In this document: in pieces, positions 6,075 through 12,608 of the stretch
Layout of the letters: the number at the start of each line of letters is the position of its first letter
How positions within the stretch are numbered: the stretch's first letter is position 1
DNA from: a bacterium
GTDB taxonomy: Bacteria > Bacteroidota > Ignavibacteria > Kapaibacteriales > UBA2268
Assembly: GCA_024711295.1 (NCBI GenBank)
Contig: JANJTB010000002.1
Location: 145,804-209,803 of the forward strand
DNA length: 64,000 nucleotides
Direction: 5' to 3'
Program-made: the position numbers and the translations under genes
The notes under the pieces: model-generated
Seen by the model: only the letters and a program-made list of their open reading frames with translations
What the model was told of the DNA's origin: nothing
Database searches by the model: none

Positions 6075-6159
6075 ATAATACAGTTTACAAAAATAATACT
6101 TTTCTGTTAATTTACCAAGAAATTCTTATTTCTTAGCACATAACTCGCCTTTTTTCGAT

Positions 6160-6275
6160 TTTCAGTAATTACCGCATTTTAATCCGTAAAAATACGTAAA
6201 ATAAAATTTTGAGTATTTTCACGGATTGTTTTTGTAAATTCCGTCACGTATTTTTGAATCGTAATTATTTGAAAC
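6160..6275. promoter_or_regulatory. Leader region with clustered direct and inverted repeats (AATCCGTAAAAATACGTAAAA / TTTCACGGATTG / TCCGTCACGTATTTTT / TAATTACCG...CGTAATTA)
   Basis: The repeats are read directly. They sit in the 460-bp non-coding gap between tRNA-His and the first pilin-like gene. Confidence 0.35.
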
Positions 6276-6538
6276 TTTATTTATTGTTCTTTGGAAATAT
6301 AACTATGGCACAAAAAAAAGAGCCCGAAATAGCGGCCAACTAATTCGAGCTTTATAGGGTGCATTTATCATGAAAAAAATGCAATGAAAAAGACGCACCT
6401 GCCATACAAATATTATAAATCGTGTTGAAATAAATGTTAGCATCATTAATACGGCCGATTAATCTTTGCTCATTTATATTTTTCAACCGCTTGTTTTTCT
6501 TTTATTTTTTTTTAATTAACTTTTTAGAGGGTCTTATC

Positions 6539-8598: not shown

Positions 8599-9432
8599 AT
8601 GAAAAAACTTACAATATTAACATTGCTGATAATAATGCTTACCCAGTTTGATTTGCTTTCGCAGGTAGGGATTTATCCACAGGCAGTTTTCTTGAATCAG
8701 AAAAATAGGGCAAGTAATCTTAAAGTACTAAATATGACTAATGAAACAAAAGAAATAATTCTTGACCTAAAGTTTGGATATCCTGATTATGACTCTCTGG
8801 GCAACTATTCTCTGGTTTACGGCGACACATTGCCCGGCGCTAAGTGGTCGGCTGTACCCTTTGTCAGAATGTTTCCCAAAAGATTACTTCTCAAGGCAAA
8901 TGAGGAACAAGTTGTTAAGTTCATGTTAGGCAATATGGGGAATGTACCTGATGGTACTTATTTTGGAAGAATCCATGTTCTTTCAAAAAATCCACCTGAA
9001 GAAATTGATACAACCTATACAGAATCAATTACAGCAAAAATTGACATACATTTTACACTTATTTCTGCATTGATTGTTGACAAAGGCAAAACTTACTGTG
9101 ATATAAGTGTTAAGCCGATGGGAACATTCTCAGATTCAAACATGGTCAATTTCTTAGTGAATGTAAATAAAGATGGTAATGCTCCATTTTTGGGTACAAC
9201 TGAAATGAAAGTATATGATTCTATGGGTAAACTTGTGGCACAAAGCAAGGACTTAACACCGTTCTATTTTAGTGGTACAAGATCTTTCAGATTCGATAAG
9301 AAATTATTTTCGAATGGTCGTTACAACGTCGAGCTTACAATGTCAAACGAGCACAAGGACGTTCCTGACGATTTCAAAGTAGCAATTAAGCCTGTAAAAG
9401 AAACATTCTCTGTTGATTTAGATGGTATATGA
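8599..9432 (+). CDS. Periplasmic PapD-like fimbrial chaperone candidate
   Basis: Signal peptide present. The mature N-terminus 'GIYPQAVFLNQKNRASNLKVLNMTNETKEIILDL' follows the 'I.P.r.if.......sl.v.N' pattern of pilus chaperones. At 277 aa the size is typical. The assignment rests on motif memory only. Confidence 0.4.
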   Translation: MKKLTILTLLIIMLTQFDLLSQVGIYPQAVFLNQKNRASNLKVLNMTNETKEIILDLKFGYPDYDSLGNYSLVYGDTLPGAKWSAVPFVRMFPKRLLLKANEEQVVKFMLGNMGNVPDGTYFGRIHVLSKNPPEEIDTTYTESITAKIDIHFTLISALIVDKGKTYCDISVKPMGTFSDSNMVNFLVNVNKDGNAPFLGTTEMKVYDSMGKLVAQSKDLTPFYFSGTRSFRFDKKLFSNGRYNVELTMSNEHKDVPDDFKVAIKPVKETFSVDLDGI

Positions 9433-12400
9433 TGAAAAAAATGGGCAGATATATTATACTTCTGCCTTATATTGTTTTGTTAAGTTACCATTTGGTTACT
9501 GCAGAACCAAGAGAAGAGGCAATCTTTGGATTAGTACATAACAAATACTCATCCGAGTTTGTGGTTTTTATGCAAAATGATACCGTATTTGTACCATTCG
9601 ATGAGGTATTATCATTCTTCAAAATATACTACAACGTAAACGAACAACGTAAATATCAAGGTTATATCAATAACGCCGACAGCTCATTTTCGATAGATTT
9701 CGCAACAAAAGAGATTCAAGATATAAATGGTTCTAAACTAACTCTCAAAGATGACTCATGGTTTGCTACTGATTTGCAAATCTTTGTCAAAACAGATTTA
9801 TTTGCTGATATATTTAAACTGAAATTCAAGACTATTTTCAATAGTTTATCTATTATTGTACAATCAGATTATGAATTACCATTTCTAAAATCCATTCGTG
9901 CAAACAAACAAATGGAGAATTTTACAGCAAAAACAAAACAGGACTATAATTTCCCGTTATTATCATCAAGCTCGTTTACATTATTAAATGGTGGGGTGCT
10001 TGATTATAATTTCGGAACATCTCAAACAAGTAATTACAGCAGTTACAATTTTTCTGGAAATGTAGGCCTGGAGCTATTAAATGGAGAATTACAATACAAT
10101 TTCTTTGGTAGGCAATACTCATCAAGTTTGAATTATCAGGACAGGGTAAGATGGAGATATTTTGTGAATGAAGATTGGTTGCAGTCAATTATGATAGGCA
10201 ACATACAAAATATGTCAATCAGAAACACAGGTAGCAGAGGATTCAGAAGACCCTTTTTCAATTTGAGAGGAATACAAATAACAAATGAAAATTATAAAAT
10301 GCCAAATGTATTTACTGATTATATAGTTGAGGATGTTGTTGAACCCGATTGGACAGTGGAATTGTATTTAGCAGATCAGCTATATGATGTAATAAGAGCC
10401 GACCTTAACGGGTATTATCGCTTCGAAATTCCAATAACCTACGGTATGACAAACATCAAGGTTAAAATTTACGGTACTAAAGGTGAATTTATAACTGAAG
10501 AAAAAATATTGAATATTCCAAATCAGATGCTTGTACCCGGAGAGTTAAAATATTCAATATCCGCCGGTAGAGATGATATAAGTGGAAGGGAACTTATAGA
10601 GGGAACGTTAAACACAGGCATTTTCGACTGGCTTTCAACATCAGTTACCGGCATTAAAGAGGAATTCACAAATTCGGTTTACCTCATTAATCAATCATCA
10701 GTAAATTTATTCGACAATACACTTCTTAATCTAACTTTAACAAGCCAGGGAGTGTACGAAGCAGGTATTAAACTTCCAGCCAATAAAACTGGAAATTTTG
10801 AATTATACTACACATATTTCGATAGTAATGTCAAAAAACAAAGCCAGCTTAGTTCCATAAACTTTATTTCTTCATTTAACATTGCAGGTAAGATACCACT
10901 TTCTTTTTCTATTTATGGTTCTAGGGATGTTTTTTCGGAATGGAGTACCAATAATTTTTACTCAACACTGAACTTTTTTTATAACTCGTTAAATTTTTCG
11001 ATACGTCACAACTTATCAATGAAAGACAGAAATTTTGTATTCGACAATATCAATCAAAACCTTAACCTTAATGTTACATACTCAATAAGTGATATGCCAA
11101 ACTTTTTAAGTTTCTTAAACAGAGTATCACTCAACACAACCACCTATTTCGATTTGAATAAGTTAGGAATTTCTTCAATTTCAACGGGATGTCAGATACA
11201 AGTAACAAGAAATCTTTCAATCAACAGTAATTACAATTACTATCTTAATAATAACTCTTCAAATTTCAGGTTGGGAGTCAACCTGAATACTCAGTCTCTT
11301 CGAAGCAATTCATCAGCTGATTTTAGTGATGCGAGAGATGTTATTATTACCAGTGATGTTAGCGGTTCGTTAGAATTTGACTCACAAAACTTAAGATTTG
11401 CACTTATAAACTCGATGGGATCATCAAATATGCATGGCAAAAGCTCCATAGCAGTTAAATTCTTTGTTGACGGTAATTATAACGGAGTTTTAGATGAATA
11501 CGAAGAATTAATTCCTGATGCAGATTTTGTGATACTTGATGCATTACCAAAGAAAACAAAGTTAGACAACTATTACATCGTAACTGACCTGATGCCAGGA
11601 ACGAAGTACAATTTCAGAGTAAAGACTGAATCATTGCCTTCCAACACCTTAATACCTCTTATCACAGAATTTGCATTAATGTCGAAACCCTATTCTTATG
11701 AATCTGTTAATATTCCTTGCCAGCAGGGAGGTGCAGTGGAAGGAACTGTAAATAGAATTGCTGAGTCAAAATCAAATGGTCAAGGCGGTATTAGAGTTCA
11801 TATCTTAGGTATTGATAAGGATTATACTACAAATGTTCTTGCGTTCTCTGATGGGTCGTTCTTTTATGACGGACTTCTACCAGGTAAATACAAGGCTTAT
11901 GTTGATTCAACACAATTACGTATACTGAATGTAAACTCAAAACCACCTTTTATAGATTTTGAAATTGAGGCTTCCGACTCAGGTAATTTCATCAGTAATC
12001 TGAACTTTGAACTTATCAAAAGCATTGATAAATTTCAGCCGGTTGAATTATATGACGGCAACTTGTTAGCATCGGATGATAAGATAACCTCAAAAAATAA
12101 GAATAAAACAAATTTTGGTAACCGGGAATTTCAGAACTTAAGTGAGAAAGAAAAAACTGATGAAGATGCAGATGTAACTTCAGACTTGATTGAAAATGAT
12201 GCAGTTAAGTCAATTACATCAATTCCTGCTGTTGGAATAGAAACCACCCCAATAAATGAAGAAATCAAATTAGGAAAGTTAGGACCAATTTTCTACCAAA
12301 AGCCAAAAAACACATTTCTGGCATCCGGAATGAAGAAATACCTGGACAAAATCTCTGATTTTTTACGAAATAATTCTAAATTAAATATTCTAATCGAAGG

Positions 12401-12608
12401 TCATTCCGATAATGTTGGTTCAATTGATGAAAATTACAACTTATCCCGACTCAGAGCTCAGGAAGTAACTAACTATCTATTATTAAAAGGGATAGGCAAA
12501 GACAGGATTAAAACGAATGCTTATGGTTCCCTTAAACCATTTATAAATAATACAGGTAAAACCGATAAAAGTAAAAATATGAGGGTAGAGCTGATGATTA
12601 CAGAGTAA
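9429..12608 (+). CDS. Usher-like outer-membrane protein (1059 aa) with a CarbopepD_reg-like beta-sandwich and a C-terminal OmpA peptidoglycan-binding domain
   Basis: Signal peptide present. A long N/S/Y/F-rich barrel region carries the usher-like segment 'RGIQITNENYKMPNVF...TVELY'. 'GAVEGTV...DGSFFYDGLLPGKYKAYV' is a CarbopepD_reg-like domain. The C-terminal 'NILIEGHSDNVGS...NLSRLRAQEV' is an OmpA_C domain. The start overlaps the stop of the chaperone-like gene (ATGA). Confidence 0.5.
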   Translation: MMKKMGRYIILLPYIVLLSYHLVTAEPREEAIFGLVHNKYSSEFVVFMQNDTVFVPFDEVLSFFKIYYNVNEQRKYQGYINNADSSFSIDFATKEIQDINGSKLTLKDDSWFATDLQIFVKTDLFADIFKLKFKTIFNSLSIIVQSDYELPFLKSIRANKQMENFTAKTKQDYNFPLLSSSSFTLLNGGVLDYNFGTSQTSNYSSYNFSGNVGLELLNGELQYNFFGRQYSSSLNYQDRVRWRYFVNEDWLQSIMIGNIQNMSIRNTGSRGFRRPFFNLRGIQITNENYKMPNVFTDYIVEDVVEPDWTVELYLADQLYDVIRADLNGYYRFEIPITYGMTNIKVKIYGTKGEFITEEKILNIPNQMLVPGELKYSISAGRDDISGRELIEGTLNTGIFDWLSTSVTGIKEEFTNSVYLINQSSVNLFDNTLLNLTLTSQGVYEAGIKLPANKTGNFELYYTYFDSNVKKQSQLSSINFISSFNIAGKIPLSFSIYGSRDVFSEWSTNNFYSTLNFFYNSLNFSIRHNLSMKDRNFVFDNINQNLNLNVTYSISDMPNFLSFLNRVSLNTTTYFDLNKLGISSISTGCQIQVTRNLSINSNYNYYLNNNSSNFRLGVNLNTQSLRSNSSADFSDARDVIITSDVSGSLEFDSQNLRFALINSMGSSNMHGKSSIAVKFFVDGNYNGVLDEYEELIPDADFVILDALPKKTKLDNYYIVTDLMPGTKYNFRVKTESLPSNTLIPLITEFALMSKPYSYESVNIPCQQGGAVEGTVNRIAESKSNGQGGIRVHILGIDKDYTTNVLAFSDGSFFYDGLLPGKYKAYVDSTQLRILNVNSKPPFIDFEIEASDSGNFISNLNFELIKSIDKFQPVELYDGNLLASDDKITSKNKNKTNFGNREFQNLSEKEKTDEDADVTSDLIENDAVKSITSIPAVGIETTPINEEIKLGKLGPIFYQKPKNTFLASGMKKYLDKISDFLRNNSKLNILIEGHSDNVGSIDENYNLSRLRAQEVTNYLLLKGIGKDRIKTNAYGSLKPFINNTGKTDKSKNMRVELMITE

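Follow-up and report, generated by a model that had tools for sequence, protein, structure and literature searches.

A six-gene operon with the layout of a chaperone-usher locus

We describe a candidate chaperone-usher (CU) operon in the genome of a bacterium of the Kapaibacteriales. It lies within a stretch of 64,000 nt (contig JANJTB010000002.1, positions 145,804 to 209,803), which we refer to as the window and whose coordinates are used throughout. The operon spans 6539-12608 on the forward strand and consists of six co-oriented genes in the order S1-S2-S3-S4-chaperone-usher. The first three encode pilin-like subunits, namely S1 (6539-6985 (+), 148 aa), equipped with a signal peptide and a complete donor-like extension at its N-terminus, and its paralogs S2 (7014-7523 (+), 169 aa) and S3 (7557-8045 (+), 162 aa), both of which carry such an extension as well. 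A stem-loop at 8062-8091 (+), recognized by its folding energy relative to shuffled sequences, separates S3 from S4 (8100-8549 (+), 149 aa), a divergent pilin paralog without the N-terminal donor-like strand. There follow the genes of a PapD-like periplasmic chaperone of 277 aa, composed of a signal peptide and two beta-sandwich domains (8599-9432 (+)), and of a 1059-aa outer-membrane usher with an OmpA-like C-terminal tail (9429-12608 (+)); the coordinates of these two genes give an ATGA overlap. As the start of S1 we take the ATG at 6539, which is preceded by a Shine-Dalgarno-like GAGGG; the tool used to list open reading frames (ORFs) had placed it at 6434. All six proteins have signal peptides; reading the sequences, we saw no lipobox cysteine at any of their cleavage sites.

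A preliminary description of this DNA had already recognized the succession of subunit genes, a small secreted protein, a chaperone-like and an usher-like protein, the last two overlapping in ATGA, and our coordinates agree with it. It had counted three pilin paralogs plus a separate small secreted protein; the paralogy of S1-S3 stands, and the small protein turns out to be a fourth paralog, S4. The shared mature N-terminus of S1-S3, QHNxPV ... (A/K)VIxP, is likewise seen in the sequences.

Scans of the six proteins with Pfam and NCBIfam returned the OmpA domain of the usher only, the rest being noise. We treated the sub-threshold match of S4 to 'bindosome BasA', as well as those of chaperone domain 2 to CHU_C (E 0.01) and Por_Secre_tail (E 0.086), as chance or generic beta-sandwich similarity.

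The 1059-aa protein is a very distant usher homolog

The AlphaFold2 (AF2) model of the large protein, built with 22 homologs (mean predicted local distance difference test [pLDDT] 77.7) and with strands assigned by DSSP, begins with an N-terminal domain (aa 29-146, nt 9513-9866) and continues with a barrel of ~24 strands (aa ~186-660, nt 9984-11408), into which a plug-like beta-sandwich of six strands is inserted (aa ~290-365, nt 10296-10523). Two C-terminal immunoglobulin (Ig)-like domains (aa 672-864, nt 11442-12020) come next, and a disordered linker of ~80 residues (aa 867-943) leads to the OmpA-like peptidoglycan-binding domain (aa ~948-1058, nt 12270-12602). That is, the strand list contains five or six barrel strands (186-285), the six-strand sandwich (294-363), and another 18 or 19 strands (373-660), with one short helix among the later barrel strands. 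The sandwich within the barrel is the most conserved part of the protein (invariant columns 281-352). Since this domain order is that of an usher plus an OmpA tail, we read the large protein as an usher.

Structural searches support this assignment. When the model was compared with the PDB by Foldseek, FimD and PapC made up the whole of the top 18 matches (E 4.8e-32 to 1.6e-14), the first non-usher appearing at 1.6e-7; the usher matches extended over up to 926 aligned columns, with TM-scores normalized to the target of 0.41-0.65. At the sequence level, a profile-profile comparison by hhalign of a 51-member family alignment with six E. coli K-12 ushers gave a Prob of 98.8% and a P of 1.4e-16 over 595 columns. 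In this alignment, residues 186-830 of the window usher run parallel to FimD 182-852, taking in the initial barrel strands, the plug, the later barrel and both C-terminal domains; residues 275-365 are placed on the FimD plug region and 672-830 on FimD 716-852. On either side of the plug there is local similarity, with RGIQITNEN of the window protein facing RGAQLASDD of FimD, and LKYSISAG facing TRYSITAG.

The N-terminal domain was not aligned to the E. coli ushers by hhalign, none of 22 usher-family members matched PF00577 at E <= 1, and a profile made from the alignment of close homologs found OmpA domains only among the PDB sequences (E 1e-10). The PF00691 match itself (residues 969-1050; E 1.2e-16; 61.3 bits, the cut-off being 27.2) concerns no more than the ~110 C-terminal residues of the protein, and this tail varies within the family: among 22 usher homologs, nine have OmpA, five have SPOR, and the others neither.

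We conclude that the 1059-aa protein is a true but very distant usher homolog, as the preliminary description had suspected from its usher-like appearance. That description had named a generic barrel of the OmpA/TonB type as grounds for refutation; what we find instead is a plug, ~24 strands and C-terminal domains like those of FimD and PapC.

The 277-aa protein resembles periplasmic chaperones

The model of the 277-aa protein (pLDDT 79) comprises two beta-sandwich domains. Its best Foldseek matches were CfaA, EcpB, FimC, YadV, Caf1M, CsuC, CupB2, PapD, DraB and SafB, with both domains aligned, and CU chaperones ranked first in both of the fold searches that we performed with this protein. On the basis of this two-domain predicted fold, the protein is a PapD-like chaperone, which bears out the earlier assignment.

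Profile searches yielded a fainter signal. With a profile of 45 family members searched against all PDB sequences, CfaA chains were the sole match at E <= 10 (E 0.02 and 0.15), and PF00345 was matched at E <= 1 by 17 of the 45 members (best 5.7e-5); the window chaperone itself did not match PF00345 at E <= 1. When the mature parts of the family were compared with seven E. coli chaperones by hhalign, P was 1e-5 over domain 1. A narrow profile of close homologs found no match among the PDB sequences, and the profile of the Bacteroidia-type clade alone found nothing significant there. None of the PF00345, PF02753 and PF00577 models reaches its threshold for the window proteins.

Classical chaperones hold the subunit's C-terminal carboxylate through Arg8 and Lys112, and non-classical ones through an arginine in strand F of domain 1 together with a tyrosine and an arginine of domain 2; the domain 1 arginine has been called 'super-conserved' among the archaic and alternative chaperones (PMC4654587). 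In our alignments, the Arg8 column holds an invariant arginine in the Bacteroidia-clade relatives, and an arginine in strand F1 of domain 1, R124 in the window protein, is conserved in the window's own clade. The family consensus 'Y-R' falls on the Y-R of CfaA 'VYRV' in the HMM (hidden Markov model) alignment, and the arginine of the window protein lies two residues further along the strand. By our own residue count, which assumes an offset of one, the arginine of 'VYRV' is probably CfaA Arg90, the anchoring residue of PMC4654587.

The family as a whole falls into two clades. Chaperones of the Bacteroidia type read QGDLLIxPxRIVF…GEYRSH, have arginine in the Arg8 column and accompany subunits that end in …VTVNYN, and those of the Kapabacteria/Ignavibacteria type read QVxIxPxAVF…GxYxxR, have alanine in that column and accompany subunits that end in Y-x-x-L/F or a terminal tyrosine. 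The two clades may not share one mode of anchoring the subunit C-terminus. We discarded the idea of a register shift, in which the position of the F1 arginine tracks the distance from the conserved tyrosine to the C-terminus of the subunits, as it is broken by loci such as L002, L027 and L028.

Subunits as remote relatives of DUF4402 proteins

A family for the subunits was suggested by the neighbors of distant usher homologs. These homologs, which share 20-26% identity and carry SPOR, not OmpA, sit just downstream of both a ~280-aa protein and genes annotated as PF14352 (DUF4402). Indeed, PF14352 was matched by 54 of 114 small proteins syntenic with usher homologs (best E 1.8e-32). S1-S4 had no PF14352 match at E <= 1, and S1 has no Pfam match of its own. 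An initial hhalign comparison of the Kapabacteria subunits with DUF4402 (94%) proved to be driven by signal peptides, P being 0.01 once these were removed. For this reason, iterated HMM searches were carried out with the mature parts only, so as to keep signal peptides from driving the result. These profiles connect S1-S4 to bona fide DUF4402 proteins, and of the 1493 ORFs in a six-frame translation of the loci, they recruited none on the wrong strand apart from one gene that is independently annotated as DUF4402. When 1.84 billion representative proteins were searched in one step with the Kapabacteria profile, 259 matched at E <= 1e-3; a Pfam scan of 144 of these identified five DUF4402 proteins and one weak SCPU match (PF05229, E 7.7e-4). 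Taken at the sequence level, these searches support a placement of S1-S4 as outliers of the DUF4402 superfamily, that is, as remote homologs and not as members by the Pfam criterion. Of the earlier suggestion that the subunits are DUF4402/SCPU-like, the DUF4402 half is thus retained in the sense of remote homology, by iterated profiles and synteny; as to the SCPU half, S1-S4 have no PF05229 match.

A relationship to classical pilins was sought through the PDB. A DUF4402 profile (A7) found no match among the PDB sequences, and the best match of a broad profile of the subunit family was FimG (precursor E 3.3e-5, mature chain E 0.019). The two are collinear over the whole alignment: the N-terminal 'tatftatvi' of the family falls on the donor strand VTITVNGKVVA, the segment 'kPlsitk..dldfG' on 'KPCTVSTTNATVDLG', and 'GtYtftftvtvsYn' (G-x-Y...Y-N) on the last, C-terminal strand of FimG. 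Comparing the mature subunits with 12 E. coli pilins, hhalign returned a P of 0.0039 over 129 columns; controls gave 0.12-0.47 over 12-33 columns.

S1, S2 and S3 match the family HMM at positions 1-136, 2-135 and 4-136, respectively. S1, as the first gene of the operon, is a candidate for the major subunit. The subunits of the window end in Y-x-x-(L/M) and those of the Bacteroidia clade in ...VTVNYN. At one locus (L047), two adjacent DUF4402 genes (1915-2433 and 2763-3281) are identical in their first 75 and last 12 printed residues; they appear to represent a recent duplication, exact or near-exact, of the presumed major subunit. Five proteins of 918-5174 aa (P0125, P0131, P0155, P0172 and P0204) each have 7-13 matches to the middle of the subunit profile, so the DUF4402-like sandwich segment seems to occur also as a tandem repeat within giant proteins.

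One strand-less subunit per locus

A polar fiber built by donor-strand exchange predicts exactly one acceptor-only subunit, and S4 is a candidate for it. Its match to the family HMM begins at position 15, ~six residues past the predicted signal cleavage site, and its mature N-terminus has ~six acidic residues ahead of the conserved proline. Although a one-step mature-only profile of S1-S3 relatives without S4-type sequences did not find the window S4 at E <= 10, an iterated profile that was likewise seeded without any S4-type sequence recruited it at round 3 with an E of 2.5e-9.

The consensus of the family HMM begins with PATATATFTATVIQP, and we scored a subunit as strand-less if its match starts at position >=9. 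By this measure, exactly one strand-less subunit was present in 33 of the 37 loci with a chaperone gene (median start 15) and two in none of the 37, the other 79 subunits having a median start at position 2. In Kapabacteria-type loci, the strand-less subunit is usually encoded by the last gene before the chaperone; in those of the Bacteroidia type, its gene stands between those of chaperone and usher, and the subunit has a C-terminal motif of its own, …TFNQE. Given the expectation of a single acceptor-only subunit, we propose S4 as a tip or initiator subunit, the first to be incorporated, and would put the chances of this assignment at about even. The donor-strand idea of the preliminary description is consistent with sequence and comparative evidence, specifically with the FimG alignment and with the single extension-less subunit per locus.

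The gene set is conserved in Bacteroidota and Ignavibacteriota

A scan that was limited by a pattern and covered one genome per species yielded 57 loci, whose labels include Kapabacteria, Ignavibacteria, Kryptoniota, Melioribacteraceae, Saprospiraceae, Chitinophagaceae, Pedobacter, Mucilaginibacter, Lentimicrobiaceae, Bacteroidales, Flavobacteriaceae and Sphingobacteriaceae. Two of the 57 come from cultured organisms, Gaoshiqia hydrogeniformans and Negadavirga shengliensis. In the 40 loci with >=3 kb upstream of the usher, the chaperone gene was on the usher's strand in 36 and chaperone plus subunits were so in 35. The locus thus belongs to a conserved gene set of Bacteroidota and Ignavibacteriota and is not peculiar to the genome of the window, the co-occurrence of the genes in related genomes being evident from the same 35 of 40 loci. 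What had been called a possibly undescribed system is, by the same token, a whole family of loci in Bacteroidota sensu lato and not the window locus alone.

Candidatus Kapabacteria, together with metagenome bins related to them, were the only sources of close homologs, which are named 'hypothetical' or 'OmpA family' there; the organism of the window is therefore probably Kapabacteria-like, within the Bacteroidota/Ignavibacteriota group. NCBIfam has no model for any component, and this includes the RefSeq genome of Gaoshiqia. No paper on DUF4402/PF14352 was found in the literature that was searched, though a subscription-journal paper or a Pfam clan may already link DUF4402 to pilins; a search on chaperone-usher in Bacteroidota or Bacteroidetes found nothing relevant and no published report of the pathway there.

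Some taxonomic labels are odd. A 1670-bp contig binned as 'Paludibacter sp.' (L006, JANJXE010000533.1) encodes a protein with 100% identity to residues 1-332 of the window usher, and loci that are clearly Kapabacteria- or Ignavibacteria-like bear metagenome-assembled-genome labels such as Desulfobulbaceae or 'uncultured Hyphomicrobiales' (the set includes L004, L006, L007, L012, L013, L015, L018, L025 and L044). Errors of binning or naming would seem to account for such labels.

In three distant loci of the Bacteroidia type (L001-L003), the DUF4402 genes are immediately preceded, on their own strand, by large genes for cargo of the type IX secretion system (T9SS). The products, encoded at 1-7422, 611-4570 and 1-5547 of L001, L002 and L003, respectively, are T9SS cargo or Ig/PKD/SprB-like proteins of 820 to >1800 aa. 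This arrangement hints at a possible functional link between the fiber system and giant T9SS adhesins. A chaperone gene was not detected in L001.

Upstream region, S3-S4 hairpin and neighboring genes

In the hairpin between S3 and S4 (8062-8091), a 13-bp stem, 9 bp of which form a G+C-rich core, closes a loop of 4 nt and is followed by a UUUU tail. Its folding energy of -20 kcal/mol (z = -6.64) was reached by none of 200 shuffles. Owing to a U-run of just four residues, it escaped a consensus terminator scan. The hairpin is probably a leaky intrinsic terminator, which matches the terminator that had been noted after the third subunit gene, its short U-run aside; acting as an attenuator, it would probably lower the expression of S4, chaperone and usher relative to S1-S3.

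The 465 bp ahead of the operon (6074-6538 (+)), beginning just after tRNA-His, contain no credible ORF and are likely to be a promoter or regulatory region. They include a palindrome at 6181-6227, ~310 bp upstream of S1, with 22-nt arms of 86% complementarity and a 3-nt spacer (AATCCGTAAAAATACGTAAAAT / ATTTTGAGTATTTTCACGGATT); a dimeric protein that regulates the operon might use it as its operator. Adjoining it at 6249-6256 is the sole copy in the intergenic region of TAnnTTTG, the Bacteroidota-type -7 box; with 54 copies on the plus strand of the window, this single upstream match is not significant. An Rfam scan of 5900-8700 returned the tRNA and, beyond that, sub-threshold matches on hairpins only: one NsiR1-like (27 bits, 6314-6370 (-)) and one RefA9-like (31 bits, 8032-8090 (+)), the latter corresponding to the S3-S4 terminator. 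Both probably reflect chance similarity to terminator-like stems.

The neighbors of the operon are housekeeping genes, with tRNA-His (6000-6073 (-)) on one side and a convergent phosphofructokinase gene (12638-13939 (-)) on the other. Farther out, 528-2645 (-) encodes a 705-aa secreted protein with a CAP domain, fn3/Ig-like domains and a C-terminal Por_Secre_tail sorting domain; given this cargo protein, we take it that the organism uses T9SS. On the other side, 14010-15011 (-) encodes a 333-aa protein with a signal peptide that is rich in aromatic residues and glycine, as are outer-membrane barrels, and ends in phenylalanine; it had no Pfam match at E <= 0.001.

A model for assembly and its alternatives

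Considered together, the locus probably represents a complete CU-type secretion and assembly operon, from a deeply divergent branch in Bacteroidota sensu lato, that would make a thin surface fiber. In the system we propose, the four subunits would be exported by Sec and relieved of their signal peptides by signal peptidase I, and the two-domain PapD-like chaperone would capture each of them in the periplasm, presumably by donor-strand complementation. The chaperone-subunit complexes would dock at the outer-membrane usher, where S4 would start assembly and hence occupy the distal tip, because it has no N-terminal donor strand. S1-S3 would come next, each donating its N-terminal extension (…TAKVIxP…) to the subunit before it in a donor-strand exchange, and the fiber would exit through the usher barrel after the plug has moved aside. 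The S3-S4 hairpin would keep S4, chaperone and usher below the structural subunits, which would make for a high ratio of subunits to machinery, and the OmpA-like domain on its flexible linker of ~80 residues would tether the assembly platform to peptidoglycan.

Several points weigh against this interpretation. None of the six proteins reaches the threshold of any CU-family model in Pfam or NCBIfam, and the operon contains no gene for a two-domain adhesin. The AF2 models of usher and chaperone are of moderate confidence (pLDDT 78-79, predicted TM-scores of 0.51 and 0.66, from 21-22 sequences), and all close relatives stem from metagenome bins. In the window chaperone, hhalign places Ala29 at the classical Arg8 column. 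As for the subunits, their sequence likeness to classical pilins is weak, if suggestive, and their apparent link to DUF4402 depends on intermediate sequences, the mature-part comparison of Kapabacteria-type subunits with DUF4402 by hhalign being weak in itself (P 0.01).

The absence of a two-domain, lectin-type adhesin, all four subunits being single-domain, would also suit a product of another shape. That is, the same CU machinery might lay down an amorphous or sheet-like DUF4402 coat in place of a discrete pilus, much as Caf1 forms the capsule of Yersinia pestis and spore coat protein U a layer in Myxococcus, and the weak SCPU match of one subunit relative (PF05229, E 7.7e-4) points the same way. 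Such a coat would depart from our best explanation in product shape only, the assembly mechanism being the same; however, the presence of one subunit without a donor-like strand in almost every locus is what a polar, tip-initiated fiber predicts, and we regard a coat as rather unlikely. A more radical alternative is that the genes are unrelated in function and encode an OmpA-family porin or anchor, a generic periplasmic Ig-like protein and small outer-membrane beta-barrels. Pfam and NCBIfam see the OmpA domain alone, one subunit homolog bears the JGI label 'opacity protein-like surface antigen', and the aromatic-x-x-hydrophobic ends of the subunits loosely resemble an outer-membrane beta-signal. 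But the usher-specific similarity in fold and sequence spans the plug and the C-terminal domains and so goes beyond the barrel, CU chaperones top both fold searches of the 277-aa protein, synteny is strict in distant clades, and the ...VTVNYN ends of the Bacteroidia-clade subunits are no beta-signal. This makes an assortment of unrelated genes highly improbable and close to refuted.

The pili usually described in Bacteroidota are of type V, and T9SS-dependent surface structures are likewise described there, so that a FimA/Mfa-like pilus or a T9SS-dependent structure deserves consideration as well. The organism uses T9SS, as judged from the Por_Secre_tail cargo at 528-2645 (-), and large T9SS cargo genes stand upstream of DUF4402 genes in the three distant loci mentioned above. 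The genes of the operon argue otherwise: the signals of S1-S4 are of the signal peptidase I type, without a lipobox cysteine, the subunits are far smaller than type V pilins, and no type V pilin family was matched in the Pfam scan of the window proteins. Nor does any of the six proteins reach the gathering threshold of a T9SS sorting domain, the two sub-threshold signals both lying in chaperone domain 2, and type V pili use neither of the two components present here, a chaperone and an usher. We give this possibility hardly any credence.

Returning to a CU-type fiber as the favored interpretation, the balance seems even on whether these loci form a separate CU class of Bacteroidota, Ignavibacteriota and their relatives, one defined by DUF4402 pilins, a single-domain strand-less tip and an usher that is often OmpA- or SPOR-tethered. 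If they do, the range of the CU pathway would extend well past Proteobacteria, Cyanobacteria and Deinococcota, three unannotated protein families would receive a function at once, and the pathway would be suggested to predate the divergence of the phyla or to have crossed between them very early. The proposed function would apply to DUF4402, to the 280-aa chaperone family and to the 850-1400-aa usher family, the latter two being without a Pfam or NCBIfam model. In addition, a conserved CU-type system would give Bacteroidota, including gut and environmental lineages, a second and as yet unannotated class of surface fiber.

Comparison with known systems

Of the families at hand, PF14352 (DUF4402) is uncharacterized. 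Syntenic subunits of related loci are members of it, and those of the window would join it through the iterated mature-only profiles; they differ in ending with Y-x-x-(L/M), not ...VTVNYN, and in having no direct match at E <= 1.

With the classical Fim and Pap systems of E. coli, the locus shares the fold and domain order of the usher, FimD and PapC being its best structural matches, and the best PDB match of the subunit family profile is FimG. One subunit per operon has no donor strand, as is the case for the tip adhesins FimH and PapG. In contrast, sequence identity amounts to 10-14% only, the candidate tip gene lies upstream of the chaperone and encodes no lectin domain, the usher has an OmpA tail, and Arg8 is replaced by alanine in the window chaperone, though it is present in the relatives of the Bacteroidia clade.

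The archaic (sigma) and alternative CU pili, such as Csu of A. baumannii, CupE of P. aeruginosa, and CFA/I and Ecp of E. coli, follow the same operon logic of small single-domain subunits, then chaperone, then usher. In the model, the window chaperone is structurally closest to these non-classical chaperones, and the usher aligns with classical as well as alternative E. coli ushers. The strand F1 arginine of chaperone domain 1, R124 here, sits in the strand that holds the anchoring arginine of non-classical chaperones and may be its equivalent, and one relative of the window subunits has a weak SCPU match. Unlike archaic subunits, however, those of the window are of the DUF4402 type and not SCPU, and the candidate tip is a single-domain pilin where CsuE is a two-domain adhesin. 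Because the curated models of all these families fail, we have not filed the locus in the sigma, alpha or classical class. The host phyla, too, are outside the published range of archaic systems, which comprises Proteobacteria, Cyanobacteria and Deinococcus-Thermus/Deinococcota (PMC4654587, PMC10104325).

Finally, the window usher differs from archaic and alternative ushers in having an additional peptidoglycan-binding domain. To our knowledge, an usher fused to such a domain has not been reported, and the usher-OmpA fusion raises the question of whether cell-wall anchoring of the assembly platform serves fiber secretion or load bearing. Set against the known systems, it is this fusion and the taxonomic range of the loci that look new.

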